Origin: Planctomycetota bacterium
GTDB taxonomy: Bacteria; Planctomycetota; B15-G4; SIAN01
Length of the DNA stretch: 64,000 nt
NCBI GenBank assembly: GCA_031409275.1
Contig: JANNXA010000022.1
Span: forward strand, 32,001-96,000
Reading direction: 5' to 3'
Each line of letters begins with the position of its first letter. The stretch's first letter is position 1. Under the pieces are notes generated by a model, which had not been told where the DNA came from, did not search any database, and saw nothing but the letters and a program-made list of their open reading frames with translations. Shown piece by piece: positions 5,222 through 34,791 of this stretch. The translations under genes and the position numbers were made by a program.

Positions 5222-5434
5222 GCTCCGCGCCGGCACTGGCTCCCGCCGGTCCGCCCCTTTTCGGCTGCGCTTCGTTACGCATTCATTGCAGAAGCGCGCA
5301 ACGGAACGGCTTGCCGATCCCGGAGCGGCGCCGAGCCCCATCCGGCACGCTTCTCCTAGCGAAGCGCGCGCCGTCGGCCGGTTCGCCGGGGCGCGTAAGA
5401 TCCTCCGCCCTTCCCGCCTGCGGAGCGCGCCACG

Positions 5435-6637: not shown

Positions 6638-6659
6638 GCGAAGCGGCGAAGCGCGCCGA

Positions 6660-7766: not shown

Positions 7767-8965
7767 CAGCGCTTCACCAGCTGCGCGCCGCGGTAGTAGT
7801 AGCTGACGATCTCGCGCCACTTCTTGCCGGCGGCGCCGAGGCCGGCCGCGCCGTACTGGCAGAGGCCGACGCCGTGACCGAAGCCGGCGCCTTCGAACGT
7901 CACGCCACCGCGCGCCACGTCGAGTCGGCGCGCCCAGGCGCTCGGCAGCTTCTCGCCGTCAGTCCTGGCGCCCGCGTTCCAGAGGCGCCGGAACTCCTGG
8001 CTCTCGAACTTCTTGTTGCCGCCGCTCGAGCGGACGGTGAAGCGCAACGCATGGGCGAAGCGGTCGCGCTCGACGTCGATGGCGGAGAGGCCGCTGACCT
8101 TCAAGCGACGCTCGAGTTCCGCGAGCGTGAGGGTGCGCGTCCAGCGGTATTTGGGCGAGGCGGAGCACCACTCGCACTCGACGCCCACGAGTCCGGCGCG
8201 GCCGGCGTCACGGAAGACCTCGGGTCCGTCGACGGTGGCGCCGCCACACGTGCTCATGAAGAAGGAGCAGAGCGGCTTGCCGTCGGCTTCGAGCACATGG
8301 CCACGGGTCGCGGCGACGAGAGCGCGCGCGCGATCATGCTTGGGGCCGGCACCGCCATAGACCTGGTCGGCATCGGTCGCTCGCAGCAACGTCTCGCCGT
8401 GGTCGAGTCGCCAACGAGCGTAGGTGCGCGCCGCCACGGTCTGCGCCTTCAAGGCTTCATCCGGGAAGCTCGACGGCATCTCGGAGAAGAGGACGCCCGC
8501 GACGTACTCCTCGATGTCGAGGACGTTGCTCACCTCGATGCGCCCACGGGCGTCGCGGCGAATGCGCAGGTCGCCGGCGAAGCTCTTCCCCTGGTAGCGG
8601 AAGAAGTCGTCGGAACGAGGTTCGAGGCGCAGCTCACTGGTTGCGAAGGCGACGCCATTCAAGTCGAGGCCGTTGCCGCTGGCGCGCAGCCGGCCGGAGG
8701 TGAGGCGGCGGCCTTCCGCGAGCGAGTTGCCGCCGGCGTCCGCGACGCGATACGCGCCATCGCAGGCGACATCGACGCTGGCGAGGTCGCGTTCGAGCAG
8801 CACCTGCACTTCAGGAATGCGGGCGATGGCGCGCGGGCTCGTGCAGCGCACGAAGATCAGCGCGCACGCTGCGACGAGCGTCGCCAAGGTCGCGGCACGG
8901 CGTGGCATCGCAAGCCACTTGGTGCCTCGCTGGAGCGATCGGGGCAGGCGCAACCTACGCTTCAT
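7763..8965 (-). CDS. SpoIID/LytB domain lytic-transglycosylase-like protein
   Basis: EEYVAGVLFSEM, EALKAQTVAARTYA, DQVYGG, STCGG and GFGHGVGLCQYGA. An alternative start exists at 8908. Confidence 0.9.
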   Translation of the reverse strand: MKRRLRLPRSLQRGTKWLAMPRRAATLATLVAACALIFVRCTSPRAIARIPEVQVLLERDLASVDVACDGAYRVADAGGNSLAEGRRLTSGRLRASGNGLDLNGVAFATSELRLEPRSDDFFRYQGKSFAGDLRIRRDARGRIEVSNVLDIEEYVAGVLFSEMPSSFPDEALKAQTVAARTYARWRLDHGETLLRATDADQVYGGAGPKHDRARALVAATRGHVLEADGKPLCSFFMSTCGGATVDGPEVFRDAGRAGLVGVECEWCSASPKYRWTRTLTLAELERRLKVSGLSAIDVERDRFAHALRFTVRSSGGNKKFESQEFRRLWNAGARTDGEKLPSAWARRLDVARGGVTFEGAGFGHGVGLCQYGAAGLGAAGKKWREIVSYYYRGAQLVKRW

Positions 8966-9971
8966 GAGCGGGCGCCCCTGCGGAGGGATGGGTCAGGCAC
9001 CAATCGCGACCGCGCGGCGTGAGCTCGCGGCCACGCGGCGTCTTGCGGATCAGCTCGAGGCGCAGCAGATGCGGCTCGTAGACCTCTTCGATCGTCTCGT
9101 CCGCCTCGCCGACGCCGGCGCCGATCGTCTTCAAGCCAAGCGAGCCGTGATCGGCGCGGTGCAGCAGGCCGAGGATGCGCCGGTCCGTCTCTTCGAGGCC
9201 GAGGTCGTCGATCCCCAATCGCGCGAGCCCTTCGACGGCGAGCGGCAGGTCGACGAGCGGGACGCCACGAACCTGCGCGAGATCGCGCAAGCGGCGCAGC
9301 AGTCGATTGGCGATCCGCGGCGTTCCGCGCGCGCGCTCGGCGATGCACGTCGCGGCGGCCGCGTGGAGCGGCAGCTGCAGGATCCGCGACGTACGCTGGA
9401 GGATCTGGATCAGGTGTTCGACCGGATAGGCCTCGAGCTTCTCGTGGATGCCGAAGCGCCCGCGGAACGCAGCCGTCAAGCGTCCTTCGCGAGTCGTCGC
9501 GCCGACCAACGTGAAGGGTTGAATCGGCAGTCGCACCGTGCGCGCGCCAAGTCCCTGATCGATCGGGACATCGACGACGAAGTCCTCCATCGCGCTGTAG
9601 AGGTACTCCTCGACGGCGATCGGCAGTCGATGCACTTCGTCGATGAAGAGCAGATCGCCGCGTTCGAGTCCCGTGAGCAGACCGGCGAGGTCGGCGGGGC
9701 GTGCGAGCGCTGGACCGGAGGTGTTGTGCAGGCGGCTGCCGCATTCGCGCGCGAGCAGGGTGCAGAGCGTCGTCTTGCCGAGGCCCGGCAAGCCCGACAG
9801 CAGCACGTGGTCGAGTGGTTCGCCGCGCATGCGAGTGGCCTGAACCGCGATGCGCAGGTTTTCGACCGTGCGTTCCTGCCCGACGAACTCGTCGAGCGTT
9901 CGGGGGCGCAACGCCCCCTCGTCGGGCGCGTCCTCAGCCCGGTTCAATTGCGCGAACGTGCTGGCGATCAT
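8955..9971 (-). CDS. ruvB: Holliday junction branch migration helicase RuvB
   Basis: LRPRTLDEFVGQ, GLPGLGKTT, FIDEVHRL, LYSAMED, GATTR, RGTPRIANRLL and TPRGR. Confidence 0.97.
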   Translation of the reverse strand: MIASTFAQLNRAEDAPDEGALRPRTLDEFVGQERTVENLRIAVQATRMRGEPLDHVLLSGLPGLGKTTLCTLLARECGSRLHNTSGPALARPADLAGLLTGLERGDLLFIDEVHRLPIAVEEYLYSAMEDFVVDVPIDQGLGARTVRLPIQPFTLVGATTREGRLTAAFRGRFGIHEKLEAYPVEHLIQILQRTSRILQLPLHAAAATCIAERARGTPRIANRLLRRLRDLAQVRGVPLVDLPLAVEGLARLGIDDLGLEETDRRILGLLHRADHGSLGLKTIGAGVGEADETIEEVYEPHLLRLELIRKTPRGRELTPRGRDWCLTHPSAGAPAHEA

Positions 9972-10384: not shown

Positions 10385-13300
10385 ATGCGTCGAAACGCTT
10401 GGCGAGCTGAAGCGGCCGCCCTCGCCGCGGCGGCAATGGCGGTGGCGGCGTTCACCAGCTGCGGTGGTGGCGGTGGGGGTGGTGCGTCGCGTCCGAGCGG
10501 CGTCGACGATCCCGTCATCGTGCTGAGCGGACCGCCGGGCCGGCTGTCGCAATCGATCGACGAGGCGAACGTGGGGAACGGCGCCACTCCGCCGCCCGCG
10601 CTGACGCCGAGCGTGACGACCAGCAATCACTGGTTCCGTCTCGAGTTCCCGTTCCCGATCCAGCGCGCCGACCTGCTCGAGAACAGCGTCTTCACTGCGC
10701 CCTTCTCGTACCTGAACGGCGCGATCACCGTGAACGACCTCGTCGGCGATCACCTGCCCGGCCTCGCGATGGTGAACGGCATCGATGCGCTCGGCGTGAA
10801 CCACGCCAACGACCCCGGGTTCCCGCACGACGTGCAGGGCTCGGTGGACAAGAACCTCGGCAACAACGTCTTCCTCTACGTCGCCGACTCCGATCGCAAT
10901 CTGTCGACCTTCGCGACGTTCGGATTCGAGCTGAACGGTGTCACCAACGCCAAGGACGAGATCGCGTCGGTGACCGATCACGAGAACGGGACGCTCGACA
11001 CGGTCCGCATCACCGTCGCGAAGATCGACGGCTTCGAGTGGAACGCGGTCTGGACCTTCTCGATCGGCAACACCAATGATTCGCGGGTCCCGGACGTCGT
11101 GCGAATCGCCTCGGAGACGCGCAGTCCGCTCGATCCGCTGAATCCGGGGTCGATCGATGTTTCCGGATCGTTCATCGTCGAGTTCTCGGAGCCGGTGGTG
11201 CCGCGCAGCGTCGGCGACTCGCCGATCTTCGGCGTCGACAGTTTCTTCGGCAACACGCCGCGGACGCCGCGCTTCATCGTCGGCACCACGTTGCCGAACC
11301 TCCCGTATCCCAACACGTTCGTGACGGCGACGGTCAACACGTCGATCGGGGCGCTCTTCGTCCCCTTCGACTGCCGGCCGCTCAACTCGAACAACCTCGC
11401 CACCTACCGCCTGCGTCCGCTGATCGATCTGCCGCCCAACAGCAGCATCGACGTCGGCGTGCGCGCGCTCGTGCTGAACACGAATTCCGTCACTGGTGCC
11501 GCGGATGCGGTTCGGGATCTCAGTGGCAACTCCTATCCCGGCGAGCTCGCGGACATCGACGGTGACGGGATCCTCGACCCGATCAACTTCACCAGCACCT
11601 TCGTGAGTGGACCAGGTGCCGGTCTCGTGAACATCCCGGTCTCGCCAGAAGTCGTCTACTGGTTGCCGACGACGGGCGACGGCATCGGCGCCATCGACCT
11701 GAACGGCCGCGGTGTCACCACGAACACACCTGGCGCGAACATCAACGATCCCGAGAAGGCGTTCATCATCACGCAGCTCTGGTTGAACGCTGCCGGATGC
11801 GAGGTGCACCCGGGCGGGCTGAATCTCGCCAACGGGATCGCGCTCGAGGGCTATCCAGGCAGCGATGCGACGCCGCTCGATCCGTGCACTGGTCTGGCGA
11901 TGGTCGAGTTCGGCCACAACCGATACCTCTACCCCGTCGGCACCGGCGCCTACGCCTACGGCCCCGGCCCGAACGCGCTCCGTGGTCAGCCTTGGTTCGC
12001 CCCCAACGACCCGGGCAACCCAGGCACGCCGTTTCCTGGTGTGAACGAGGGTTCGAGCGGCTTCGAAACGCTTTGCCGCGACAGCACCGGCGACGTCATC
12101 CTGACCGGGCGGCAGTTCGGCCGCGTCGGAACCGTGAATGACCTGATCGTCGGTGAGTTCCTCGACCTCGTCTACTTCGACCAGGCGAGCACCAGGACCA
12201 ATCCGCTCCTCCATGTGACGATCTGGAACTCGGGGCGTCCCCACACGCTGACCGGTCGCGGGAACACGATCGCCGACCCGCCGACGCCCAACCCGCCGCC
12301 TCTGCGCTACTGGTTCGGGTTGCCGGAGATCGGGACGGTTCCCGACCGCGTGAACCCCGAGAACCCGCCGCTCCTGATCGAGGGCGAAGAGGTGTTCCTC
12401 GGGCCGCGCGGCGGCAGTGGTTACGTGCAACTCCAGCCCAACGAGATCCGGCCTGACGCGCCCGATCAGACCGTGTTCCCGCACATCGGGCACGGTCCGG
12501 GCCTGCAGTCGTCGAGCGCCGCCTTCACCTACTCGTCGCGCCAGCAGATCGGCAACTTCCTCTACGCGACGGACAGCACGAATGGTGTCGTGCAGGTCAT
12601 CAACAGCAACACGATGCGCGTCATCTCGAGCATCTCGACGCCGAATCCGACCGGGCTTGCGATCGCGCCCGACATGTCCAAGCTCTACGTGTCGAACTTC
12701 GGTTCGAACAACGTTTCGATCATCGGAACGAATCCGCTCGGCAACGACTTCCATCGCGAGATCGCGCGCATCGCGGTCGGCGAAGGCCCGCGAGCGATCT
12801 GCGTGCAGCCTGAGCACGAAGAGATCCTCGTCTGCAACTACACCGGGAACACGGTCTCGCTGATCTCGAGCGTGGACTTGAGCGTCCGCAAGACGCTCGA
12901 CGCGCTGATCAGCGGCCCCTACGACATCGAGGCGTCGCCGCGCCAGATCACTCCCTTCTCTCCGAGCCCCAACAACCCGACGCAGATCGGCTGGGCGTGT
13001 GGCCTCTACTTCGCCTACGTCTCGAACTTCAACGGCAACACGGTCGTCGTCTACGAGTCGGGGCCGGATGGATCGCAGGGCATCGGCATCGACAACGTCC
13101 GCGGTTCGCTTCCGAGCGATGACGCGGCCGGCGAGCTGCTGGCGCCCCGTGGCCTCTGCTACGACCCGTTCCCGAATCCTTCGGGGCTTTCCGCCGGCGG
13201 TTGCTTCGTGGCTCACCGTGACGCCGAAGGACGCGGTCGGGTGAGCGAGATTCAGTTCACCGTCCAGGCGCAGCTCGGGCCGTTGCCGATTCAGGCGCCG

Positions 13301-13708
13301 CCGGGGCTCACGACTCCGCCGGGATTCCTCGATCGAGTCTTCCAGATCGTGAAGACGTGGGGGAACCTCGACACCGCCCGCTTCATCGGGATCTCACCGA
13401 CCGACGTGACGTTGTCGGACCTGTCGACGGCGGCGTGGCAGGCGCGACCGTCGGGGGCGCCCAACCTCGGTTGCGTTTCGATCCCGCCGACGGTGGCCCT
13501 GACCGGCGCGATCAACTCGAAGAACCCGATGCGGCTCAACACTCCGTTCTGCTTCCCGGCGGTCACGCCCGATCGCCTCTACGTCTCGTTCGAGGACGTG
13601 GGCGCGGTGCAGGTGCTGAGCCCCGCTGTCCCCGGAACGATCCTGCGGACCATCACTGATCCTGGCGTCGGTGGCGTTCGAAAGGTCGTTTCGTACTGGC
13701 GGCAGTAG
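10385..13708 (+). CDS. Large lipoprotein, paralog 1 (putative Ig-like regions plus YVTN-like beta-propeller)
   Basis: GGAGAG before ATG 10385; lipobox FTS-C then G7; blades PTGLAIAPDMSKLYVSNFGSNNVSII and VGEGPRAI..ILVCNYTGNTVSLI; colinear with paralogs 2 and 3. Confidence 0.85.
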   Translation: MRRNAWRAEAAALAAAAMAVAAFTSCGGGGGGGASRPSGVDDPVIVLSGPPGRLSQSIDEANVGNGATPPPALTPSVTTSNHWFRLEFPFPIQRADLLENSVFTAPFSYLNGAITVNDLVGDHLPGLAMVNGIDALGVNHANDPGFPHDVQGSVDKNLGNNVFLYVADSDRNLSTFATFGFELNGVTNAKDEIASVTDHENGTLDTVRITVAKIDGFEWNAVWTFSIGNTNDSRVPDVVRIASETRSPLDPLNPGSIDVSGSFIVEFSEPVVPRSVGDSPIFGVDSFFGNTPRTPRFIVGTTLPNLPYPNTFVTATVNTSIGALFVPFDCRPLNSNNLATYRLRPLIDLPPNSSIDVGVRALVLNTNSVTGAADAVRDLSGNSYPGELADIDGDGILDPINFTSTFVSGPGAGLVNIPVSPEVVYWLPTTGDGIGAIDLNGRGVTTNTPGANINDPEKAFIITQLWLNAAGCEVHPGGLNLANGIALEGYPGSDATPLDPCTGLAMVEFGHNRYLYPVGTGAYAYGPGPNALRGQPWFAPNDPGNPGTPFPGVNEGSSGFETLCRDSTGDVILTGRQFGRVGTVNDLIVGEFLDLVYFDQASTRTNPLLHVTIWNSGRPHTLTGRGNTIADPPTPNPPPLRYWFGLPEIGTVPDRVNPENPPLLIEGEEVFLGPRGGSGYVQLQPNEIRPDAPDQTVFPHIGHGPGLQSSSAAFTYSSRQQIGNFLYATDSTNGVVQVINSNTMRVISSISTPNPTGLAIAPDMSKLYVSNFGSNNVSIIGTNPLGNDFHREIARIAVGEGPRAICVQPEHEEILVCNYTGNTVSLISSVDLSVRKTLDALISGPYDIEASPRQITPFSPSPNNPTQIGWACGLYFAYVSNFNGNTVVVYESGPDGSQGIGIDNVRGSLPSDDAAGELLAPRGLCYDPFPNPSGLSAGGCFVAHRDAEGRGRVSEIQFTVQAQLGPLPIQAPPGLTTPPGFLDRVFQIVKTWGNLDTARFIGISPTDVTLSDLSTAAWQARPSGAPNLGCVSIPPTVALTGAINSKNPMRLNTPFCFPAVTPDRLYVSFEDVGAVQVLSPAVPGTILRTITDPGVGGVRKVVSYWRQ

Positions 13709-13745
13709 GCGATCGACTCGTCGATCGATTCCGGCGCACGATCGG

Positions 13746-13788
13746 CTCGGCTCGCGGCGACCCAACGTCGTCGCGAGCCGAGTTCATT
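13746..13788 (+). terminator. Putative intrinsic terminator after paralog 1
   Basis: CTCGGCTCGCGGCGA-CCCAACG-TCGTCGCGAGCCGAG forms a 15-bp stem with one G-U pair, followed by TTCATT. Confidence 0.5.
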
Positions 13789-14155
13789 CCGGCGACTGCT
13801 TGACGCGTCCGGTGCTGGGGGCCGCGGCACGGCGGCGACGGAGCGGAGTGACCCCGGTCGGTCGGGTGGACTAGAAGCCAACTCGACTCCTTCCAGGGGG
13901 GCGTCGGCTTCGAGCGAGCGGATTCGCGCGAGTCGCCGCTCGTTGCCGTTCCTCGGGGAAGTTTCGGGGCGCCAGCGCATCCGGCACGGGGGATGCTGAA
14001 CTAGAAGGTGCGAGTGGGCGAGGAGCCGGGGGGCCCCGGGGAGTTTTTTGACCCTTCTCTGGGGCTCCCCGATAAAACCTCTCCCTTTCGCGGCTACCGC
14101 CAACAAGCCTGCGGTGACCATCCGTTCGACCGAGCGATGTAGGAGAACGAGCGCA

Positions 14156-17100
14156 ATGCGAGCGATGCCGATCCGTCTCTCGACGAGAGTGCTCGGGGTG
14201 TCCAGCGGGGCGCTGTTGCTGACCAGCTTGCTGCAGGGGTGCGGCGGCGGCGGCGGCGGCGGCACCTCCAACGCAGGCGGCAACGTGAATGACGTCCCGT
14301 TCCTGCTGGTGGGTACGCCCGGAAAACTGTCGCAGACACCCACCGAGGCGAACGCGGGCGCCGGTCTCGCGCCGCCCCCGACGTTTGCCACGACGGTGAC
14401 CACGGACAACCACTGGTTTCGAATCGAGTTCCCGTTCGACATCGAGGCGAACACGATCCTCGACTCGACCGCGAACCTGGCGCCGTTCTCCTACTTGAAC
14501 GGCAACATCACGATCGTCGACGTGAATGGCGCGCATGTTCCTGGGCTCGCGTTGGTGAACGGTCGCGACGCATTCGGCGTCGATCGCAGCTCCAACCCAG
14601 GATTCCCGCATGACCTGACGACGAGCGGGCGCGACTTGAACCTCGGCAAGCGCGTCTTCCTCTTCGTCGCCGACGTCGATGGCAACCTCGCGACTCCTGC
14701 GGCGTTCGGCGGATATCTGCCGGATCCGAACAACGCGAACGGAATCATCGAATCGACCACCTCGATCCTCGATTCGGTGCGCATCAACGTCTTCTCGATC
14801 AACGGGATCACCACGGAAGCGGCGTGGACCTTCTCGATCGGCAACACCGACACGCGGCAGCCGTTCGTGATCTCGATCGGGTCGGAGGAGCGCAGTCCTC
14901 TTGATCTGCTGAACCCGAATTCGACCTCGTCCTCCGGCGCGCTGATCGTCCAGTTCTCCGAGGCGATGGTCCCGCGGACGGTCGGGCGTTCGGCGGTCCT
15001 CGACGGCGCTCCGTTCGACGGGAACATGCCCAATCCGATCCTCTCGGCGAACCTGCCGCCGACGGCGATCATCGCGACGGTCAACCTGAACGTCGGCACC
15101 TTGTTCGTGCCGTTCGATTGTGCGCCGCTCAACATCAACAACCTCACGACCTACCGCCTTACTCCGCTGATCCCGTTGCCGTCGAACTCGTCGATCGACG
15201 TGTTGATTCGAAGCTTCACGACGAACAACGTCTCCGCGACCGACCTGTCGGGCAACAGCTACGACGGCCAGGACACGACCGGGGACGGCGTCGGCGATTC
15301 GGTCGACCATTCGGTGACCTTCGCAGTGGGGCCGGGGCCGGCGGTTGCGAACGTTCCGGTCTCGCCGGAGGTCATCTACTTCGCGCCTTCTTCCGGTGAC
15401 GGAATCGGCGCCATCGACCTGAACGGCAACGGCTTCACGACGAACACTCCTGGCGCGAATGCCGGCGATTTCTCGGTCGCTCCGATCGTGACGCTGCAGT
15501 GGCTCGATACGCAGGGCTGCGAGACGCAGCCCGGCGGCCTCAACCTCGCGAACGGGATCGGGCTGATCGGCTATCCCGGCAACTCTCCGACGCCGACCGA
15601 TCCCTGCACGCTCGTTCCGATGGTCGAGTTCGCCCACAACCGCTACTACTACCCCGTCGGCCTCGGCAGCTTCCCGTTCGGGCCGGTCGCCAATGCGGCG
15701 CGCGCCAACTCGGGCGGCGCCTTCCCCGACGAGTGGTTCGCCCCCAACGATGCCGGCAATGCCGGAACTCCGGTTCCTGGCGTGAACGAGGGATCGAGCG
15801 GCTTCGAGACGATCTGCCGTGACAGCAACGGCGAAGCGATCCTCACCGGGCGCGAGTTCGGCGTCGTCGGCAACGTGCAGGACATGATCGTCGGCGACTT
15901 CCTCGACCGCGTCTACTTCGACCGCTTCAACCTGCGCGCGCAGACGGGGCTGCACATCAGCTTCTTCGGCGGCGGCGCGAGCACGCTCGGCCGCAACCTG
16001 ATCTCCGATCCGCCGATCCCCAACCCGCCGCCGACCCGTTACTGGGTCGGGCTGCCGCAGGTCGACGTCAATTTCGACGCGAACTCTCCGGGCACTCCCG
16101 GCGTGTTGATCGAGGGCGACGAAGTCTGGACCGGGCCGCGTCCGAATGGCCCGGCCGCCGTCTCAGGCGTCCTCGGCGCCGGCGACACTGCGCGGGCCTT
16201 CAACGGCTATCTGCACCTCCGCAGCAATCCGATCTCGGCAAACTCGCACGACATCCAGCTTCTCCCCTTCGCCGTTGGCCCTGCGAAGGGGTGCCTTGGC
16301 AACGGCCCCGGCCACCAGTCCGCCACGTCGGCGTTCTCCTTCGCGTCGCGCCAGCAGATCGGCAACTTCCTCTATGTGACGGACGCCTCCTCCCGCGAGG
16401 TTCAGGCGGTCAACTCGAACACGATGCGCGTGATCTCGAGCATCTCGTTGCCCGACCCGACCGGACTCGCGATGTCGTCGGACATGGAGTTCCTCTACGT
16501 CACGAACTTCTCCAACGACAGCCTCTCGGTGGTGTCGTGCGACCCGACGTCGCCGCAGTTCCACCGCGAGATCGCGCGAGTTCCGTGCGGCATCGGTCCG
16601 CGCGCCATCGCCGTTCAGTCGGAGAACGAAGACATCTTCGTTTGCAACTACCTCGGCAACACGGTGTCGATCATCAACCCGGCGTCGCTCACCGTGCGCA
16701 AGACGCTCGACGCGCTGATCAGCGGTCCATGGGATGTCGAGGTGGCGCCGCGCCAGGAGCAGCCGAGTGCCCCGCACCCGTCGGGTTGGGCTTGCGGCCT
16801 CTACTTCGCGTACGTGTCGAACCTGATCGGCAATACGGTCGTCGTCTACGAATCAGGGCCGGACGGGCCGCGCGGTATCGGCATCGACAACATTCGCGGC
16901 TCGCTCCCGAATGACGACAACAGCGAGGAGCTCGTCGCGCCGCGCGGACTCTGCTTCTCGCCGTTCGCCAACCCGCTCGGGCTCTTCGCCGGTGGCGTCT
17001 TCGTCGCCCACCGTGACGCCGACGGCAACGGCCGCGTCTCGCACATCCAGTTCACCCAACAGGCGCTGTTCGGCCCGCTTCCGATCCAGGTGCCTCCCGG

Positions 17101-17503
17101 CTTCTTCCTTCCGCCTGGCTTCACCGATCGCGTCTTCGAGATCACTTCGACCTGGGGCGCCACGGCAAACTCCGTGTTGGCCGGTGACCTGCCGACGGAC
17201 GTCTGTCTCGCGGACATGAACACGGCGGGCTACCAGAGCAATCCGTCGGCGGCACCGAACTTCGGCGGGGTTGGCGATGCGCCGCAGCCGGAACGTTCGG
17301 GTGGAGTGAACTCGAAGAACTTCCTCCGCCTCGTGTCGTTCGGGGCGTCGATGGCGATCGTTCCCGACCGCCTCTACGTCAGCTTCGACGACACCGACCA
17401 GATTCAGGTGCTGTCGCCGACGCAGGCGGGATTGGTGCTGAAGACCATCGACGGCCACGGCGGTACGGGCACGAAGAAGCTCGGCGCCTTCTGGCGGCAG
17501 TGA
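14156..17503 (+). CDS. Large lipoprotein, paralog 2
   Basis: AGGAG 10 nt before ATG 14156; lipobox LQG-C then G7; same motif order as paralog 1; ends FWRQ. Confidence 0.85.
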   Translation: MRAMPIRLSTRVLGVSSGALLLTSLLQGCGGGGGGGTSNAGGNVNDVPFLLVGTPGKLSQTPTEANAGAGLAPPPTFATTVTTDNHWFRIEFPFDIEANTILDSTANLAPFSYLNGNITIVDVNGAHVPGLALVNGRDAFGVDRSSNPGFPHDLTTSGRDLNLGKRVFLFVADVDGNLATPAAFGGYLPDPNNANGIIESTTSILDSVRINVFSINGITTEAAWTFSIGNTDTRQPFVISIGSEERSPLDLLNPNSTSSSGALIVQFSEAMVPRTVGRSAVLDGAPFDGNMPNPILSANLPPTAIIATVNLNVGTLFVPFDCAPLNINNLTTYRLTPLIPLPSNSSIDVLIRSFTTNNVSATDLSGNSYDGQDTTGDGVGDSVDHSVTFAVGPGPAVANVPVSPEVIYFAPSSGDGIGAIDLNGNGFTTNTPGANAGDFSVAPIVTLQWLDTQGCETQPGGLNLANGIGLIGYPGNSPTPTDPCTLVPMVEFAHNRYYYPVGLGSFPFGPVANAARANSGGAFPDEWFAPNDAGNAGTPVPGVNEGSSGFETICRDSNGEAILTGREFGVVGNVQDMIVGDFLDRVYFDRFNLRAQTGLHISFFGGGASTLGRNLISDPPIPNPPPTRYWVGLPQVDVNFDANSPGTPGVLIEGDEVWTGPRPNGPAAVSGVLGAGDTARAFNGYLHLRSNPISANSHDIQLLPFAVGPAKGCLGNGPGHQSATSAFSFASRQQIGNFLYVTDASSREVQAVNSNTMRVISSISLPDPTGLAMSSDMEFLYVTNFSNDSLSVVSCDPTSPQFHREIARVPCGIGPRAIAVQSENEDIFVCNYLGNTVSIINPASLTVRKTLDALISGPWDVEVAPRQEQPSAPHPSGWACGLYFAYVSNLIGNTVVVYESGPDGPRGIGIDNIRGSLPNDDNSEELVAPRGLCFSPFANPLGLFAGGVFVAHRDADGNGRVSHIQFTQQALFGPLPIQVPPGFFLPPGFTDRVFEITSTWGATANSVLAGDLPTDVCLADMNTAGYQSNPSAAPNFGGVGDAPQPERSGGVNSKNFLRLVSFGASMAIVPDRLYVSFDDTDQIQVLSPTQAGLVLKTIDGHGGTGTKKLGAFWRQ

Positions 17504-17519
17504 GCTGCGGAACGCACCG

Positions 17520-18371
17520 ATGCAGCGCCTCGATCCACGCCAGAAGTCGGGAGCCGACGTGCGACGCATGTTCGATGCGATCGCGCCGAGGTACGACCTC
17601 CTGAATCGCGTGCTCTCCGCTGGGAGTGACGTGCGCTGGCGCCGACTGGCGGTGGCTCGTGCCTTGGCGGGATTGGAAGGTGCGCTGGTCGCGGATGCGT
17701 GCTGCGGCACCGGCGACCTCGCGATCGAGCTTGCGCGCGACGCGAGGACGCGACGAGTGGTCGGTTTCGACTTCGCGCAAGCCATGCTGGCGCGCGCGCA
17801 TGCGAAACGACCGGAAGGGGCGAAGGCCGACTTCGCCGTCGCCGATGCCCTGAAGTTGCCGGCGCGCAGCGGCAGTTTCGATGCGGTGACGGTCGCATTC
17901 GGGCTGCGCAACGTGGTCGAGCCACGCGCCGGGATCGCGGAGTTGTGCCGGTTGCTGCGCCCCGGCGGCCGTTTGATCGTGCTCGAGTTCTTCACGCCGG
18001 AAGGTGGGTTCTGCGGGTCGCTGTTCCGCGCCTACTTCCGTCATGTACTGCCGCGTATCGGGCGACTCGTCGCTCGCGGCGCTGCGGTCGACGCCTACCG
18101 CTACTTGCCGGAGTCGGTGGAGTCGTTTGCGCGAGTGGAGGAGGTGGCGAACTGGTTCGCCGCTTCCGGTTGCGAGGAGGTCTGCTGCGAGCGCCTGCTG
18201 TTTGGCGCCGTCGGCCTGATCTCCGGAGTGAAGCGCGTCGCCGCGGGGCAAGCCGCGGGGCAAGTGATGGGAACGACGCGCGTGTTGGGTGGCTTGACTT
18301 CGACTTCGACGACGCGCCGCAAGGCGCCCGTGCCGTACCTTGGAGATTCGCCGTGTTCGGAGAATCCATGA
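17520..18371 (+). CDS. menG: Demethylmenaquinone/ubiquinone methyltransferase (UbiE/MenG)
   Basis: MFDAIAPRYDLLNRVLS, DACCGTGDL, FGLRNV, LRPGGRL and AYRYLPESV. Confidence 0.9.
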   Translation: MQRLDPRQKSGADVRRMFDAIAPRYDLLNRVLSAGSDVRWRRLAVARALAGLEGALVADACCGTGDLAIELARDARTRRVVGFDFAQAMLARAHAKRPEGAKADFAVADALKLPARSGSFDAVTVAFGLRNVVEPRAGIAELCRLLRPGGRLIVLEFFTPEGGFCGSLFRAYFRHVLPRIGRLVARGAAVDAYRYLPESVESFARVEEVANWFAASGCEEVCCERLLFGAVGLISGVKRVAAGQAAGQVMGTTRVLGGLTSTSTTRRKAPVPYLGDSPCSENP

Positions 18372-21300
18372 CTCGCGATTGGACGCGGAAGGGGTGGTTC
18401 ATCGGAGCCGCTCTCCTGGCCACGCTCGGGGTGTCGGCATGTGGCGGCGGGGGCGGCGGGTCGGGCGGATCGCGGGGCGATGAGCTCACCGACCCGGTGA
18501 TCGCGCTGTTCGGTCCGACCGGCAAGTACTCGCAAACGCCGACCGAGGCCAACTCCTCTGGCGGTGCGATCAAGCCGCCGTCGATGCCGACCGGCACGAC
18601 GACGAACCAGTTCCTGCGCCTCGAGGTGCCGTTCGTCGTCGACCGTCGCGACATCGTGTCGCCCGATCCGGTCTACCGCCCGTTCTCCCAACTGACGGGC
18701 AACCTGGTGGTGACGGACTCGACTGGCGCGCACGTGCCCGGTGTCGCTGTCGTCAACGGCATCGATGCGTATGGCAAGTTCCGCGGCAACGACCCGGGGT
18801 TCCCGAAGGACCTCTCCGGCAGCGGTGCCGACCGCAACCTCGGTGCTGGCGTCATCCTCTACATCGCCGATGACGGGGATGGTGACCTGTCGACGGTCGC
18901 CGCGTTCGGCGGCAGCTCTTCCGATTCGGACTCGAGCCCGACGACAACGGACCTGACGTCGCTGCGCATCTCGCTGAACGACCTGAACGGTCGCTCCATC
19001 GACGCCTTCTACACCGTCACCATCGCCAACAGCGCATTGGGCGACACCGTCGGACCGAGCGTCGTGTCGATCACCGCCGAGTCGGTGGACCCGCTCGACC
19101 CGCTGAATCCGGCCAAGTGCTCGACGAGCTCGCGTTTCATCATTCGCTTCAACGAGCCGTGCGTGCCGACCACGGTCGGCAAGTCGGCGACGCTCGACGG
19201 CACCCCGTTCATCGGCAACCTGCCGCGGCTCGGTCTCCCGGGTTCGCCGCCGCCGAAGCCGCTTCCGAATACGCACATCACGGCGACGCTGAACGTCAAC
19301 CGTTCGCAGCTCTTCCTGCCGTGCGACATCCGGCCGCTCAACTCGAACAACCTCGCGACCTACATCGTGACGCCGCTCGTCGATCTGCCGGCGCAGCGCA
19401 CGATCAACATCGTCGTCGTCGATGCGAACGCCAACCGCGACGCGAATCTCACGCAGTTCGGTGCGATCGACCTCGTCGGCAACTTCCACACGCCCGGCGC
19501 TGACGCTCGCGGCATCTTCACCGTGGCGAAGGGGCGAGCGCCCGCTTGTGCCCCGGTCTGCCCGGAAGTCTTCTACTGGCTGCCGGTCAGCGGAAGTGGC
19601 CTCGGCGCCGTCGACCTGAACGGTCAGGGATTCACCACCAACACGCCCGGACACGGCGCGAGCGACTACCACTTCGCCTCGCTCATTTCGCGGGTCGCCA
19701 ACACCACCAGCGCGGTCGGCATCCTCGGCAGCGGCAACCGCTACTCCTGGCCGGTCGGAACCGGGAGCTTCATCTACGGTCCTGGTTTCTCGATCGGCGG
19801 CCAATCGTGGCAGGGCGCGCCGAGCGATCAGGGCAACAGCGGCACTCCGATCCCCGGCATCAATGAGAGGTCGTCCGGATTCGAGACGCTCGTTCGCAAC
19901 GCCGACGGGGACGTGATCCTGACCGGCACGAACAACGGCACGCTCGGAACGGTGGCCGACATGGTCGTCGGCGACTTCCTCGACGCCGGGATCTCCGACA
20001 CGCTGAGCTTGTTCAACAACCCCGGCTTCCACACCTCGTTCTTCTGGGGCGGTGGCTTGTCGCGCAACGCGCTCGGCGATCCGCCGATCCCCAACCCGCC
20101 GCCGCTGCGTTATTGGGTCGGACTGAACCCGATCGACATCCTGATCGATCAGAACAACCCGCTCGGCAAGGCGCGCATGATCGAGGGCGAAGAGGTCTGG
20201 TCGGGCACATTGAGCAGCTACTCCTTCGTCGTTCCCGACGCGATCAACCCGGTCGATGTCGACGATCGCCCGACCGGCGGCGCTGTGAACGGTCCGAATC
20301 CGCAGTCGGCCACGGCCGCCGTCGCCTACGCGGCACGCCAGCAGGTCGGCAACTTCCTCTACGTGGTCGACGCGACGGCGGGGCTCCTACAGGTCGTCAA
20401 CTCGAACACCTTCCAGATCATCACTACGCTCGACCTCCCGGGTCCTTCGGGCGTCGCGGTGATGCCGAACAATCGCTTCATCTTCACCGCGAACGCGGGC
20501 AACGACACGATGTCGGTGATCGGCTCCGATCCGACGCAGCCCGACTTCCACACCGAGATCGCGCGGGTCCCGGTCGGTCGCGGTCCAACCACGATCTCCT
20601 GCCAGGGCAACGGCGAGGATGTGTTCGTCGTGAATGCGCTCGACAACACCATCAGCATCGTCGAGCTCGGCACGCTTACCGTGCGCAAGACTCTCGACGC
20701 CCTCATCGACGGGCCGCGCGAAGTCGTGCTGACGGCTCGCCAGAACGGCTTCGGATGGAGCGCCGGCGTCTACTTCGGCTACATCGCCAACTTCACCGGG
20801 AACAACGTCGTCGTCTACGAATCCGGCCCCGACGGTCCGCAGGGCATCGGCTGCAACAACGTGCTCGGGTCGCTGCCGACGACCGGAAGCGACGTGGAGA
20901 TCTTCGAGCCGCGCGGGCTCGTCTATTCGCCGTACGCCAACGACCAGGGGCTCTATGCGGGCGGCGTCTACGTGACGCACCGCGACAACTCCGGCGCGGG
21001 GATGATCAGCCACATCCAGTTCACCCACCAGGCGCTCTTTGGTCCGCTGCCGTGCGTGTTGCCGCCGGGCAACTTCTTCATCCCGCCAGGCTTCAACGTG
21101 CGCGAGTTCGAGGTGGTCGGCCAGTGGGGCGCCAGCGGTCAGACGCCGCTGCTCGGCAGCAAGCCGAGCTCCGTCGTCCTCACCGACTTCCGCTACGACT
21201 CCTACTCGCTGCTCACGACCCAGCCGCCGAGCCAGGACGGTCGCGGCACGCCGGGATTCGGCGGCAAGAACACGCGCCACCCGATCCAGTTCGTGCAACC

Positions 21301-21481
21301 GCCCGATCCGCGCGCTCCGCACCTCCCGATCGTCGAGCCGGACCGCATGTACGTCGCGTTCGAGGACTCTGACCGCATCCAGGTCCTCGATCCGATCCGC
21401 ATCGGCGCCGCGATCGGCGAGCTGAAGGAGCGGACGGGCGTCGGCGTCCGCAAGCTCGTCGGGTACTACGACAGCCAGTGA
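18368..21481 (+). CDS. Large lipoprotein, paralog 3
   Basis: ATGA overlap with the menG stop; lipobox VSA-C then G6; shares the conserved blocks of paralogs 1 and 2. Confidence 0.85.
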   Translation: MTRDWTRKGWFIGAALLATLGVSACGGGGGGSGGSRGDELTDPVIALFGPTGKYSQTPTEANSSGGAIKPPSMPTGTTTNQFLRLEVPFVVDRRDIVSPDPVYRPFSQLTGNLVVTDSTGAHVPGVAVVNGIDAYGKFRGNDPGFPKDLSGSGADRNLGAGVILYIADDGDGDLSTVAAFGGSSSDSDSSPTTTDLTSLRISLNDLNGRSIDAFYTVTIANSALGDTVGPSVVSITAESVDPLDPLNPAKCSTSSRFIIRFNEPCVPTTVGKSATLDGTPFIGNLPRLGLPGSPPPKPLPNTHITATLNVNRSQLFLPCDIRPLNSNNLATYIVTPLVDLPAQRTINIVVVDANANRDANLTQFGAIDLVGNFHTPGADARGIFTVAKGRAPACAPVCPEVFYWLPVSGSGLGAVDLNGQGFTTNTPGHGASDYHFASLISRVANTTSAVGILGSGNRYSWPVGTGSFIYGPGFSIGGQSWQGAPSDQGNSGTPIPGINERSSGFETLVRNADGDVILTGTNNGTLGTVADMVVGDFLDAGISDTLSLFNNPGFHTSFFWGGGLSRNALGDPPIPNPPPLRYWVGLNPIDILIDQNNPLGKARMIEGEEVWSGTLSSYSFVVPDAINPVDVDDRPTGGAVNGPNPQSATAAVAYAARQQVGNFLYVVDATAGLLQVVNSNTFQIITTLDLPGPSGVAVMPNNRFIFTANAGNDTMSVIGSDPTQPDFHTEIARVPVGRGPTTISCQGNGEDVFVVNALDNTISIVELGTLTVRKTLDALIDGPREVVLTARQNGFGWSAGVYFGYIANFTGNNVVVYESGPDGPQGIGCNNVLGSLPTTGSDVEIFEPRGLVYSPYANDQGLYAGGVYVTHRDNSGAGMISHIQFTHQALFGPLPCVLPPGNFFIPPGFNVREFEVVGQWGASGQTPLLGSKPSSVVLTDFRYDSYSLLTTQPPSQDGRGTPGFGGKNTRHPIQFVQPPDPRAPHLPIVEPDRMYVAFEDSDRIQVLDPIRIGAAIGELKERTGVGVRKLVGYYDSQ

Positions 21482-21638: not shown

Positions 21639-22433
21639 GTGGCGAGGCGAATCAAGGCCATGGCGGCGCGAAAGAAGGCTCCGGCGCTCGACCTTCAGGC
21701 CTACCTGCGCCTGACGCGCGGCGTGACGGTGTCGATCGCCTATCTCCTGCCGCTGCTCGCCGCCTACGAGGTCGGTCTGCAGATGACCGGCTGCGATCTG
21801 CGCAACTCCGCCGAACTGTCGCTCAAGCTCGCCGCTGGATTGTTCGGGGACTTCGGTCCATGGATCCAGCGCGCGGTCCTTGCCGGCGTCCTCTTCGTGG
21901 CCATCCGCCTCGCGCGCCGCAACGTGCCGGCGCTGCGTCTCTATCCCGTCTTCCTGCTCGAGGCGACGCTCTTCGCGCTGCTGCTCGGACCGCTCGTGGG
22001 CACGCTCGTCGATGGCACCGGACTCGCGGCGCATCAGGCGATCCCGGCTTCGATGAACGACGCGAACGGCGTCGCGGTGGCGCCGCCGCTGGCGGAGCGC
22101 GTCCTGCTCTCGATCGGTGCCGGCGTCTACGAGGAACTGGTGTTTCGCTTCCTGCTGCTCGCCGGCGGCTTCGCGTTCTTGCATCGCGGGCTCGGCCTCG
22201 AGCGGCGGCTCGCGCTCGGCTCGGCGGTGCTCGCCTCGGCGCTGCTCTTCAGCGGCTACCACCACATGGGGCCGTCGGGCGAGCCGTTCGTCGCCGGGAC
22301 CTTCCTCTTTCGTGCGGCGGCCGGACTCGCGCTCGGACTCGTCTTCACCTGGCGCGGTCTCGCGTTGTGCGCCTACCTGCACGCCTTCTATGACATCTTG
22401 TGCGACCTCACGTGGCGCGGAGCATCCTCATGA
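21639..22433 (+). CDS. CPBP (CAAX/Abi family) intramembrane glutamic endopeptidase
   Basis: Multiple TM helices, with EELVFR, FSGYHH and HAFYD motifs. Start is 21639 (GTG) or 21660. Confidence 0.85.
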   Translation: MARRIKAMAARKKAPALDLQAYLRLTRGVTVSIAYLLPLLAAYEVGLQMTGCDLRNSAELSLKLAAGLFGDFGPWIQRAVLAGVLFVAIRLARRNVPALRLYPVFLLEATLFALLLGPLVGTLVDGTGLAAHQAIPASMNDANGVAVAPPLAERVLLSIGAGVYEELVFRFLLLAGGFAFLHRGLGLERRLALGSAVLASALLFSGYHHMGPSGEPFVAGTFLFRAAAGLALGLVFTWRGLALCAYLHAFYDILCDLTWRGASS

Positions 22434-23023
22434 AGCGCGTGATCGTCGCCGCCACGGGAGCGTCTGGAGCTCTCTACGGACGTGCCGTGGTCGAGACGCT
22501 GCTTTCCGCCGGTGCGAGCATCGATCTCGTCGCGAGCCCGCCCGCGCAACGCGTCGCGCGCGATGAACTCGGCAGCGATTGGAGCCGGCCCGAAGTCGAG
22601 CGTTGGCTCGGAACGAAGGCGGCTAGCGTCACGCTCCATCGTCACGATGACATCGGCGCCGCGATCGCCTCGGGCTCCTGTCCGGTGCAGGGGATGATCG
22701 TGGTGCCGTGCTCGATGGGCAGCGCCGGCCGCATCGCCGCCGGCCTCTCCGATGCCCTGATCGAGCGCGCCGCCGACGTGCAACTGAAGGAGCGCCGACC
22801 GCTCGTGCTGGTCGTGCGCGAGACTCCCTTCTCGCTGCTCCATCTGGAGAACCTGACCCGCCTCGCGCGCGCCGGTGCGACCGTCATGCCCGCTGCGCCC
22901 GGTTTCTACGCGCGGCCGCAGACGATCGCCGACCTCGTGCGCTTCATCGCGGAACGCGCGGTGGCCGCCGTCGGCATCGAGCTGAAGCGCAGCGTCGAGT
23001 GGAAGGGTGACGCCGCGCCATGA
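22430..23023 (+). CDS. ubiX: Flavin prenyltransferase UbiX
   Basis: TGASGA, IASGS, PCSM, RAADVQLKERRPL, RETP and PGFY; ATGA overlap. Confidence 0.95.
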   Translation: MKRVIVAATGASGALYGRAVVETLLSAGASIDLVASPPAQRVARDELGSDWSRPEVERWLGTKAASVTLHRHDDIGAAIASGSCPVQGMIVVPCSMGSAGRIAAGLSDALIERAADVQLKERRPLVLVVRETPFSLLHLENLTRLARAGATVMPAAPGFYARPQTIADLVRFIAERAVAAVGIELKRSVEWKGDAAP

Positions 23024-23907
23024 ACCGCGCCATCCCTGCGAGCGGCTTCTTCGCGAAGACCGCGATCACGCTCGAGATGGTCAAGGTCGCGCACACGATC
23101 TTCGCCCTGCCCTTCGCGCTCGCGGCGCTCTTCCTGGCCGCGGGCGGCTGGCCTGGCGCCCGCCGGCTGGCGTGGGTCGTCGTGGCGATGCTCTGCGCGC
23201 GTGCGGCGGCCATGGCGTTCAACCGCCTGGTCGACGCGAAGTTCGATGCACGCAACCCGCGAACGCAGCGGCGCGCGCTGCCGGCCGGACTGCTTTCGCG
23301 CGGCTTCACGGCAGGGTTCGTGGTCGTCTGCGCCGCCGGCTTCGTCGCCGCGTCGTACGCGCTGAACCGCCTCTGCTTCGCCTTGTCGCCCGTCGCGCTG
23401 GTGGTCGTGCTGGGCTACTCCTTCGCGAAACGCTTCACCGCGCTTTGCCACCTGTGGCTCGGGGTCGCGCTCGGCATCGCGCCGCTTGCCGCGTGGTGCG
23501 CCGTGCGTGGCGTCGTTGACGGCTCCACCTGGATTCCCGGATTGCTCGCGGTGGCGGTGCTCTTCTGGGTGGCAGGCTTCGACCTGATCTACGCGTGCCA
23601 GGATGTCGACTTCGATCGACGGGAGGGGCTGAACAGCCTGCCGGCGGCGCTCGGACCGGCGAGCGCGCTGCGCCTGGCGCGCGGCTTCCATGCGGTCACC
23701 GTGCTGGCGCTCGTATCAGTGGGCTGGCGAGCGAGTCTGGGGCTCTGGTGGGGAGGCGCGGTGGCGATCGTCGCCGCCTTGCTCTTCCTCGAGCACCGCC
23801 TGGCCGACCCGGCCGATCCCAAGCGCCTCGAGATCGCCTTCTTCCGGGTCAACGCCGCGATCGGCCCGCTGTTGTTCGCGGCGATCCTGCTCGAACTGTT
23901 CGCATGA
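23020..23907 (+). CDS. UbiA-family prenyltransferase (MqnP-like, menaquinone)
   Basis: HTIFALPFA, AMAFNRLVDAKFDARNPRT, YSFAKRFT and GFDLIYACQD. Confidence 0.9.
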   Translation: MNRAIPASGFFAKTAITLEMVKVAHTIFALPFALAALFLAAGGWPGARRLAWVVVAMLCARAAAMAFNRLVDAKFDARNPRTQRRALPAGLLSRGFTAGFVVVCAAGFVAASYALNRLCFALSPVALVVVLGYSFAKRFTALCHLWLGVALGIAPLAAWCAVRGVVDGSTWIPGLLAVAVLFWVAGFDLIYACQDVDFDRREGLNSLPAALGPASALRLARGFHAVTVLALVSVGWRASLGLWWGGAVAIVAALLFLEHRLADPADPKRLEIAFFRVNAAIGPLLFAAILLELFA

Positions 23908-24926
23908 GCGCTTCTGATTTCGAGCCCGGCGCGCCGCTTCCGGCCACGCTGCTGGTCGGCGGTTCGGCTCGTTGCCTGCTCGACGAGCTGCTCCTTCGTT
24001 GCCTTGCGCCGGTCGTGAAGGAGGCGGAGATCGAGCGGCTGCCGGCGGTCGCGCTGGCGAAAGAGAAGGACGAAGGCGGCCTTGCGACGATCGTCCTGAA
24101 GAAGCTCGGCAATGCCTCGCTGTTCGGGGCGCGCCGCGTCCTGGTGGTGATCGGCGGGCAGGAGCTGCTGCGCGACAAGTCGGCGAAGGCATGGATGGAG
24201 AAGCCGACGCCGCGCACCCATCTGGTGATCGCGGCCACGCGGCCCGCCAAGGACGGTCCTTATGCCGTGCCCGCCGGCATCCCGGTCGGCGTCGCATGGG
24301 ACGCCGGGCCGCAATCGCCAAGCGAGCTGCGACGCTTCCTCGAGCGCCGCCTCGCGCTGCGCAGCGCGAAGGCGACGCCGGCGGCGTTCGAGGCGTTGCT
24401 GGCGCAGGCCGGCGCCTCGCTCGACGCGCTCGACTCGGAGCTCGAGAAGCTGGCGCTCTTTTGCCTCGGCGAGACGATCGACGCGGCGCACGTCGAGGCG
24501 CTGTGCGGCCACACGGCGGGGCGCGACTTCGATCGCCTGTGGCAGGCGCTGCTCGACAAGCGTCTCGGCGAGGCGCTCGGCCTGGTCGAAGCGATGAGCA
24601 CCGAAGGTCTGGTGATGTTCGGCGGCGGCCGCGTCTACGGCGCGAGCGCCGTCTCGAACACGCTCTTGCCGCTGCTGCTCGCGCGCATTCGACGGGTGGC
24701 CGCGGTGGCGACGTCGAACGAGAAGCTGGTGGGGGCCGTCGGCAGCGCGCTGCGCATGAAGCCCGGCTACGTCCACTTCCTGCAGAAGGACGCGCGGACG
24801 CTCGGCCCGCGCATGGCGCGGTGGCAGGCCGCGGCGCTCGGCGCCGAAGTGCAGCAGAAGCGCGGCGGCGCGCGCAGCGATGAAGAGAACCTCGAGCAAC
24901 TGCTTGCGCGGCTGTGCGCACGATGA
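23904..24926 (+). CDS. holA: DNA polymerase III delta subunit (divergent)
   Basis: SLFGARRVLVV and LDSELEKLALF..IDAAHVEAL pattern; ATGA overlap. Confidence 0.7.
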   Translation: MSASDFEPGAPLPATLLVGGSARCLLDELLLRCLAPVVKEAEIERLPAVALAKEKDEGGLATIVLKKLGNASLFGARRVLVVIGGQELLRDKSAKAWMEKPTPRTHLVIAATRPAKDGPYAVPAGIPVGVAWDAGPQSPSELRRFLERRLALRSAKATPAAFEALLAQAGASLDALDSELEKLALFCLGETIDAAHVEALCGHTAGRDFDRLWQALLDKRLGEALGLVEAMSTEGLVMFGGGRVYGASAVSNTLLPLLLARIRRVAAVATSNEKLVGAVGSALRMKPGYVHFLQKDARTLGPRMARWQAAALGAEVQQKRGGARSDEENLEQLLARLCAR

Positions 24927-24940
24927 GGAGCGGCGGCGCC

Positions 24941-34148: not shown

Positions 34149-34171
34149 GCCGCGACCAGGGAGAGCGCAGC

Positions 34172-34258
34172 TGGTGCCGAAGACAGGACTTGAACCTGCA
34201 CTCCCTTGCGGGAACTAGACCCTGAATCTAGCGCGTCTGCCAATTCCGCCACTTCGGC
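34172..34258 (-). tRNA. tRNA-Leu(CAG)
   Basis: GCCGAAG acceptor, anticodon arm CTAGA-TTCAGGG-TCTAG, long variable arm, GTTCAAGT and encoded CCA. Confidence 0.95.
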
Positions 34259-34314
34259 ACGAAATGGAGGGCGGTACTGTAGGCCGCTCCTCGGCGGAGT
34301 CAAGCGAGCGGACG

Positions 34315-34791
34315 ATGACGGCGAAGCCCGACAAAGCAAGGCGCAGCGTCGCCCGGAATCGTCGCGCAACATACGACTACGCGATCCTGGACCGTTTGCA
34401 GGCAGGCCTCGTCCTCACCGGGACCGAGGTGAAGTCGTTGCGCAAGGCGGAGGCGACGCTGGTCGGCTCCTACATCCGGATCGACGACGACAAGCTCTGC
34501 GCCTGGCTGATCGGCTGCCAGATCCCCGAGTACTCGCACGGCACCTACGCCAATCATGAGCCCAAGCGCAAGCGCAAGCTGCTCCTGAACGCCAAGGAGA
34601 TCATCAAGCTGCGGCAGTCGACGAAGACCGACGGGACCACCATCATCCCGCTCGAGATCTACTTCGAAGGGCCGTGGGCGAAGGTCGAGATCGGGCTCGC
34701 GAAGGGCAAGCGGGTGGCGGACAAGCGGCAGTCGATCGCGGCACGCGAGGCCAAGCGCGACATCGACCGGGCGGCGCGCGGACGTCGATGA
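34315..34791 (+). CDS. smpB: SsrA-binding protein SmpB
   Basis: NRRATYDY, GLVLTGTEVKSLR, RKLLL and GLAKGK..DKR. Confidence 0.97.
   Translation: MTAKPDKARRSVARNRRATYDYAILDRLQAGLVLTGTEVKSLRKAEATLVGSYIRIDDDKLCAWLIGCQIPEYSHGTYANHEPKRKRKLLLNAKEIIKLRQSTKTDGTTIIPLEIYFEGPWAKVEIGLAKGKRVADKRQSIAAREAKRDIDRAARGRR

Follow-up and report, generated by a model that had tools for sequence, protein, structure and literature searches.

A conserved family of predicted propeller lipoproteins with immunoglobulin-like domains in Planctomycetota: a putative structural subunit of the cell envelope

Results

Three paralogous genes for probable lipoproteins at one locus

A 64,000-nucleotide stretch of a Planctomycetota genome (B15-G4; SIAN01; assembly GCA_031409275.1, contig JANNXA010000022.1, positions 32,001 to 96,000 of the forward strand), hereafter the window, contains three large paralogous genes, A (P0001), B (P0002), and C (P0003), that encode probable lipoproteins (Table 1). 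An original prediction made from the letters alone had described an array of three same-strand genes of about 1107, 1115, and 1037 residues, and the open reading frame (ORF) coordinates and lengths agree: all three are plus-strand ORFs without internal stops. Their paralogy is borne out by BLAST identities over the full length of 55% (A-B), 41% (A-C), and 43% (B-C), each with an E value of 0, but the array is not contiguous, being interrupted after B by a menG/ubiE gene whose stop runs into the start of C. No fourth copy was found in the 5.6-Mb genome. Each N-terminus, read from the sequence, runs from basic residues through a hydrophobic segment to the predicted Cys and its seven (A), seven (B), or six (C) following Gly residues, and the colinear blocks that had been listed are present in the A/B/C alignment. 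The richness in Asn, Gly, Pro, and Thr holds as well, these residues making up 34-36% of A, B, and C; the genome averages 21.1 ± 3.7%, and all three proteins exceed the 99.5th percentile of its 2727 crudely called genes. The three proteins are acidic (isoelectric point, pI, 4.5-4.7) and poor in Lys. We refer to the propeller family of A, B, and C as F1, numbering its residues as in A, and to sister lipoprotein families of the same genome (G000) as F2, F3, and F4. Genome searches covered the Planctomycetota; f-numbers denote sampled families, G-numbers genomes, and L-numbers loci.

Table 1. Coordinates of the three F1 genes, the predicted domains of A, neighboring genes, and sister-family genes. 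Positions are those of the window unless a genome is named; pLDDT, predicted local distance difference test.
Feature	Coordinates	Strand	Basis or remark
Paralog A (P0001), 1107 aa; mature ~114 kDa, pI 4.6	10385..13708	+	ORF
A: lipoprotein-type signal peptide, Cys26, Gly7 linker	10385..10483	+	sequence; pLDDT <50 at residues 25-35
A: predicted first Ig-like domain, ~residues 44-229	10514..11071	+	Z only ~5 to Ig folds
A: predicted second Ig-like domain, ~residues 234-411, Big_5/SbsC/CopC type	11084..11617	+	structure matches, Big_5
A: predicted 7-bladed YVTN-type propeller, residues 421-1104	11645..13705	+	model; 1L0Q match; ends Y-W-R-Q
Paralog B (P0002), 1115 aa	14156..17503	+	ORF; alignment and BLAST
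Paralog C (P0003), 1037 aa	18368..21481	+	ORF; earliest-diverging of the three (tree)
menG/ubiE methyltransferase, neighbor, not always beside F1	17520..18371	+	annotation and locus comparison
CPBP (Rce1-like) intramembrane protease, constant neighbor, widespread in phylum	21639..22433	+	annotation and locus comparison
ubiX, ubiA/mqnP-like, holA, mutL: downstream syntenic housekeeping block	22400..26788	+	annotation and locus comparison
ruvB, spoIID/lytB, tgt: upstream divergent syntenic block	6660..9971	-	annotation and locus comparison
HEAT-repeat protein, 1127 aa, downstream of tgt	3497-6880	-	recurs in 20/60 loci
Two adjoining ~640-aa ORFs	32199-36578	-	first: weak CehA/McbA metallohydrolase match; second: none
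F2 triplet, ~1020 aa, 70-80% identical, ending Y/F-L-R-P-S-G	G000:C14:209052-218933, L093	-	
F3 pair, ~990 aa, Big_5-like start, long Gly-rich tracts	G000:C16:217866-221096, C27:147587-150916; L095, L096	-	
F4, ~1130-aa lipoprotein, Big_5 and Gly-rich segments	G000:C36:116718-120287	-	

Predicted architecture

An AlphaFold2 model of A built from 70 sequences (pLDDT 87.9, predicted template modeling score 0.86) places a seven-bladed propeller behind two immunoglobulin (Ig)-like domains. YVTN-like blades had been foreseen, but in the C-terminal third only; in the model the propeller takes up 62% of the chain, with ~293 of its 684 residues in the core and ~390 in inserts. The Ig-like character of the N-terminal half agrees with a separate model of residues 41-420 (pLDDT 90.6), which gave two Ig-like domains, the first with a weak Ig match. 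The best propeller match was the Methanosarcina surface-layer-type protein 1L0Q (Z 32.4, root-mean-square deviation 2.2, 293 residues aligned, 22% identity), which ranked first in further comparisons too. The second Ig domain matched SbsC (2RA1, Z 9.0, root-mean-square deviation 2.4, 97 residues aligned; 4UJ6, Z 8.6) and CopC (6NFQ, Z 8.5). By the strand order of the model, the last strand (residues 1098-1102) joins strands at 423-438 to close the propeller ring. This closure would account for the C-terminus of 119 of 121 F1 members, an aromatic pair with one to three residues after it, mostly as Y-[FW]-x-Q.

R853, E891, and D730 are invariant in F1 and E812 is nearly so; the only His residues conserved at 88% or more are H790 and H944, and the CxxCH heme motif is found in none of the 121 members. 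In 72/121 members the first Ig domain has a D-x-D-x-[DN]-L-x-T loop (A residues 168-175) that may be a calcium site. A lipobox, called by sequence pattern only, was detected in 65 of 84 full-length members. The most distant members are 750-940 residues long, with shorter inserts, and retain the Cys-Gly start, an N-P-x-P-P junction, the aromatic C-terminus, and both R853 and E891; members of only 750-850 residues occur in f7, f36, f45, and f67.

Relation to described protein families

The original prediction recognized no characterized family of this architecture, and indeed no curated family in Pfam, NCBIfam, or PHROGs matches F1 over its full length. Pfam and NCBIfam matches were limited to partial blades and scattered Big_5 domains (PF13205, 21 of 67 members). 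With TIGR02276 (cut-off 27.85 bits), A (34.2) and B (33.3) scored above and C (27.4) just below, and the predicted model has the seven-bladed propeller fold of TIGR02276-type proteins. The uninterrupted tandem repeats followed by PKD of the 1L0Q type were not found: in F1 the propeller forms the C-terminal part and extends across 684 residues, and Pfam scans of 30 and 67 members gave no PKD match. Lactonase (PF10282) was not matched at domain length, the scores being 15.6 (A), 20.8 (B), and 22.2 bits (C) against a gathering threshold of 21.7, each over ~75 of 344 positions. Scores were 21-38 bits for hydrazine synthase beta (NF052340, cut-off 560) and 20-25 bits for lactonase-type NosZ (L-NosZ; NF052460, cut-off 700), a protein with many conserved His ligands. 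A phage origin was rejected, PHROGs at E 1e-5 giving 0 families for 5/5 proteins scanned.

The ESM Atlas holds two unnamed Big_5 plus Lactonase clusters of 102 and 54 members, labeled "hypothetical protein" and scoring 0.98 with F1 member P0201; Planctomycetota is the commonest phylum of both, and they probably are F1. A cluster of shorter, 464-residue Big_5 plus propeller proteins, commonest in Ignavibacteriota (score 0.91), indicates that the domain pairing itself occurs outside F1. A search for longer distant relatives returned mostly generic repeat proteins, none above the 1265-residue floor extending the length range. No description of F1 was found in the literature, searched mostly in freely accessible papers. 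Its domains are known; neither F1 itself, nor its status as a core gene of several classes, nor its link with the sister families appears to have been described.

F1 is a core gene of several planctomycete classes

A profile of the three window sequences matched all 31 genomes of the host's own order. Across the phylum, a 30-sequence profile matched 73 of 401 genomes at E 1e-40, and the family tallies, where shown, were all or none: F1 was present throughout f1 (4/4), f2 (8/8), f4 (11/11), f9 (12/12), and f15 (7/7), and absent by this profile from f8 (0/21), f16 (0/25), f25 (0/11), and f28 (0/18). Matches were also obtained in 117/121 genomes of the class of G387 (63/64 of the high-quality ones), including genomes of 2.1-2.4 Mb, and, at E 1e-25, in 16/18 genomes of the class of G040. 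The original prediction had proposed such a profile search, and the homologs that it recovered are conserved rather than scattered. F1 belongs to the core gene set of several Planctomycetota classes and is syntenic across them. Named matches and loci belong to Planctomycetota, unclassified bacteria, or unclassified metagenome-assembled genomes; P0201 comes from a cultured carrier, named Engelhardtia mirabilis by its source. The one-contig genomes G166 and G459 have a single F1 match each. An apparent natural split form in G010 was discarded, its pieces sitting at contig ends. At L027:13490-16791, a second F1 copy is broken across three reading frames by frameshifts or assembly errors.

In a FastTree phylogeny of 67 propeller regions (L043 and P0194 left out), C branches first and A and B split later, both events falling inside the host's own family. 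A, B, and C each cluster with orthologs from the loci L021-L023, and the duplicates of other families pair within those families, as separate duplications. F1 orthologs are 81-86% identical in protein and 58-66% identical at four-fold sites; among A, B, and C, four-fold sites are 53-55% identical and the longest shared DNA run is 27-31 bases. Gene conversion among the window genes was considered and rejected, since 12 sliding windows revealed no converted block; four-fold identity is higher, at 69%, in the A-B pair of L021. A, B, and C are best described, from the tree, as tandem copies of a conserved lineage-core gene that has been duplicated repeatedly and is often single-copy.

This history bears on the proposal, contained in the original prediction, that one old triplication gave rise to a fixed three-subunit complex. 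A, B, and C do form their own clades with orthologs in three related loci of the same gene order, and the window shows no sign of gene conversion, as separate subunits of an obligatory hetero-trimer might. However, the two successive duplications are confined to the host's own family, other lineages duplicated F1 independently, L025 has two copies only, and the one-contig genomes have single matches. Because F1 is often single-copy and repeatedly duplicated, an obligatory hetero-trimer is very improbable, and the single-triplication account is not supported.

A fixed site among housekeeping genes

The order tgt-spoIID-ruvB, F1 gene or genes, CPBP, holA-mutL is seen again in the most distant members, and the same chromosomal site is occupied in many distant families. 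Over 60 loci, which include many short contigs and extra copies, the commonest neighbors were ruvB (35), tgt (34), CPBP (33), holA (29), and mutL (27). F1 is an old, vertically inherited gene. Its usual site has been rearranged locally at L028, L031, L033, L034, L037, and L045, where F1 genes are flanked by tgt and spoIID and occupy the opposite strand.

The CPBP gene was present in 29/29 loci reaching holA. A dedicated role for this protease in F1 processing was rejected: the CPBP profile matches 247/401 phylum genomes, including F1-less families (f8, 15/21; f28, 16/18), so its link to F1 is no more than synteny. A menaquinone link was likewise set aside, as the neighbors menG, ubiX, and ubiA come and go: in the same 29 loci menG is missing from 7 of 28 scorable, ubiX from 7, and ubiA from 4, with F1 retained.

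These observations also make it very unlikely that F1 is a periplasmic enzyme or enzyme subunit, whether lactonase-like, hydrazine-synthase-beta-like, or tied to the neighboring menaquinone genes. An enzyme would fit the weak Lactonase, HzsB, and L-NosZ profile matches, the co-orientation of F1 with menG, ubiX, and ubiA (C even overlapping the menG stop), and the conservation of Asp and His close to the mouth of the propeller. The profile matches, however, span only two or three generic blades and fall far below the HzsB and L-NosZ cut-offs, no member has the heme motif, and F1 persists at several holA-reaching loci from which the menaquinone genes have been lost. The enzyme option of the original prediction is weak on the same grounds. 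HzsB, a planctomycete seven-bladed propeller without an active site of its own according to the available part of PMC12758564, has in common with F1, as do the lactonases, generic YVTN-like blades (5C2V for HzsB). F1 differs in scoring far under the HzsB cut-off, in covering 75/344 Lactonase positions, and in having no heme-protein genes among its recurring neighbors.

Sister lipoprotein families

The host genome encodes further Cys-Gly lipoproteins of ~1000-1130 residues with the same composition as F1: the triplet F2, the pair F3, and F4. F2 gave no curated family above cut-off and has a remote likeness to the first Ig domain of F1 (search E 1e-7; hhalign 74.6%, E 2.6e-5). It occurs in 28/31 genomes of the order, and F3 in 31/31, with ~17 copies in G006. 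F2 and F3 genes adjoin and are co-oriented in 11 genomes of f4 and f5; in G166, weak F2 and F3 matches adjoin. Among 47 F2-positive genomes of the phylum, 46 are also F1-positive, the F2 matches beyond the host's own order being weak. Compared with f1, f4 has longer versions of F1, F2, and F3. The N-termini of f2 lack the lipobox pattern in all three (9/9 intact F1, 7/7 F2, and 3/3 readable F3); elsewhere F2 has it in 10/10 (f4), 5/5 (f5), and 10/12 (f1) cases. At f2 loci (e.g., L010, L012, L108, L184, and L193) F1, F2, and F3 start with an ordinary signal peptide without Cys, and the F1 start carries a conserved G-F-A-[DN]-x-x-G-G motif. The host genome also has three ~690-residue Cys-Gly lipoproteins (G000:C16:47022-51547 and C16:96186-98714), of which two adjoin and begin almost identically.

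Discussion

The closest structural match to F1, 1L0Q (TIGR02276), shares the predicted seven-bladed YVTN-type propeller, the same start strand, and closure by a C-terminal strand; it is exported, as F1 probably is, and in both the propeller is joined to Ig-like domains. In F1, unlike 1L0Q, the domain order is reversed, with Ig domains first and of the SbsC and CopC types, ~390 residues of conserved inserts are present, and the protein is a lipobox-bearing product of a bacterial core gene at a fixed locus. We take 1L0Q not to be the main lattice protein of Methanosarcina. SbsC (2RA1, 4UJ6) and Big_5 have the fold of the second Ig-like domain in common with F1, but the likeness is limited to one domain of ~100 residues, and no wall-binding domain was found in F1; since the same Ig fold occurs in CopC, LdtMt2, and alpha-2-macroglobulin, it shows no function.

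F1 is putatively a structural subunit of the cell envelope, possibly of a multi-family coat or scaffold, a reading we favor while holding it in about equal measure of confidence and doubt. Among the options of the original prediction, a lattice would be the best guess. In favor of a structural role stand near-universal presence in three classes, the shared chromosomal site, the composition, the co-occurring sister families, and the best fold matches of the predicted domains, an archaeal surface protein (1L0Q) for the propeller and the S-layer protein SbsC for the second Ig domain. The protein would be exported by the Sec pathway and lipidated at its first Cys, and the Gly linker and Ig domains would hold a propeller head, locked by the C-terminal strand, away from the membrane. 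With faces assigned by the strand order printed for the predicted A model, 415/511 loop residues, and 45/50 of the well-conserved ones, are placed across from the face where active sites usually sit; these Pro/Asn-rich inserts may form a cap that binds other subunits rather than a small substrate. Partners would be copies of F1 itself and, within the host's own order, also products of genes at other sites, namely F2, F3, and perhaps F4. Rather than an obligatory trimer, A, B, and C would be variants, either interchangeable or sub-specialized. The product may be an abundant subunit of this coat or scaffold. Composition-corrected codon use is ribosomal-protein-like in A, B, and C (95th, 97.5th, and 89.5th percentile; EF-Tu, 97.6), and F4 scores highest in the set (98th percentile). 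High expression of A, B, and C is inferred from this score, whose controls are weak.

Several points weigh against a structural role in a coat. Codon bias is weak in this genome, with the controls GroEL at the 48-82nd and EF-G at the 38th percentile. The Ig-domain Z scores of 8-9 are close to background level, per-residue enrichment of conserved positions on the one face is only about two-fold (45/415 vs. 5/96), and D586, D754, D1007, and H944, close to the other face, are conserved as well, so that a metal or ligand site is possible there. Related genomes in the counts are not independent. S-layer (surface-layer) proteins assemble themselves into a paracrystalline lattice on the cell surface and rank among the most abundant proteins of a cell. 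Their genes usually diverge fast, and a housekeeping machine would account for conservation with fixed synteny across classes no less well than an S-layer would. The available part of the cryo-tomography text on E. mirabilis describes fragile, shape-changing cells and makes no mention of an S-layer (10.1101/817700), and PMC12288469, as far as its text was available, claims for its own strain the sole S-layer-like structure among non-anammox planctomycetes.

A housekeeping machine is the premise of a doubtful but substantial alternative, in which F1 would serve a core outer-membrane machine as an accessory or receptor subunit, either a BtuG-like lid that captures ligands on a transporter or a BamB/TolB-like scaffold, standing one-to-one with a membrane protein encoded elsewhere. 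F1 is indeed core, syntenic, and often single-copy, R853, E891, D730, and E812 could form a partner-binding site, and the fold matches include BtuG1 and BtuG2 (Z 24.6-24.7). BtuG of Bacteroides (8BLW, 8PTF; Z ~24.7) is a surface lipoprotein with a seven-bladed propeller, as predicted for F1; F1 is three times larger, has an Ig stalk, and carries its conserved loops on the opposite face by the strand-order assignment. The BtuG scores are no higher than those of generic WD40 propellers and lie 8 Z units under 1L0Q. BtuG-type lids are typically encoded beside a TonB-dependent transporter, whereas no transporter or barrel gene was found among the 21 window ORFs scanned or the ten recurring F1 neighbors, other loci being incompletely annotated. 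Free tandem duplication and the loss of the lipid anchor in f2 would also be less usual for a stoichiometric subunit.

It is unlikely that F1 is instead a stand-alone surface adhesin or lectin whose propeller, on its Ig stalk, binds particles, glycans, or sibling cells, with paralogs widening the range of ligands. Repeated duplication and variable inserts would suit such a protein. Archaeal YVTN/PKD proteins, which share domain types with F1, have had a cell-cell role hypothesized in the available part of PMC5498576, and cultured relatives are particle-attached and aggregate-forming in that of 10.1101/817700. Retention in 117/121 genomes of one class, the smallest included, at one site among housekeeping genes argues against an adhesin, as do orthologs that stay 81-86% identical in protein while their four-fold sites are only 58-66% identical. 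Typical adhesins are not known to be retained in this way.

A more specific form of the structural reading is possible, though we hold it only tentatively: several deep-branching classes, among them that of the shape-shifting Engelhardtia/Saltatorellus group, may build an undescribed multi-protein coat of co-evolving ~110-kDa Ig-stalk proteins. F1 would be its ancient, constant core, and F2, F3, and F4 would be partners whose anchor type and length vary in concert. Such a coat, which classical Planctomycetia-type families would lack, would take the place of an S-layer as a flexible, non-crystalline structure. Against either form of the coat reading, F2 was not found in f7 or f15, and one F3 query matched only 1/5 distant F1-positive genomes (0/5 F1-negative). 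The joint lipobox loss in f2 is one event, and the pattern also missed F1 elsewhere (3/6 in f4, 2/4 intact in f5, and 3/4 in f46), so the loss is suggestive only.

F1, a probably exported protein of 110 kDa that is core in some classes and was not found in most other sampled planctomycete families, is probably central to how these bacteria build their envelope. Its gene is a ready marker for its group of classes. E. mirabilis, which is in culture, behaves oddly in its envelope, and carries F1, makes the question accessible to proteomics and tomography.

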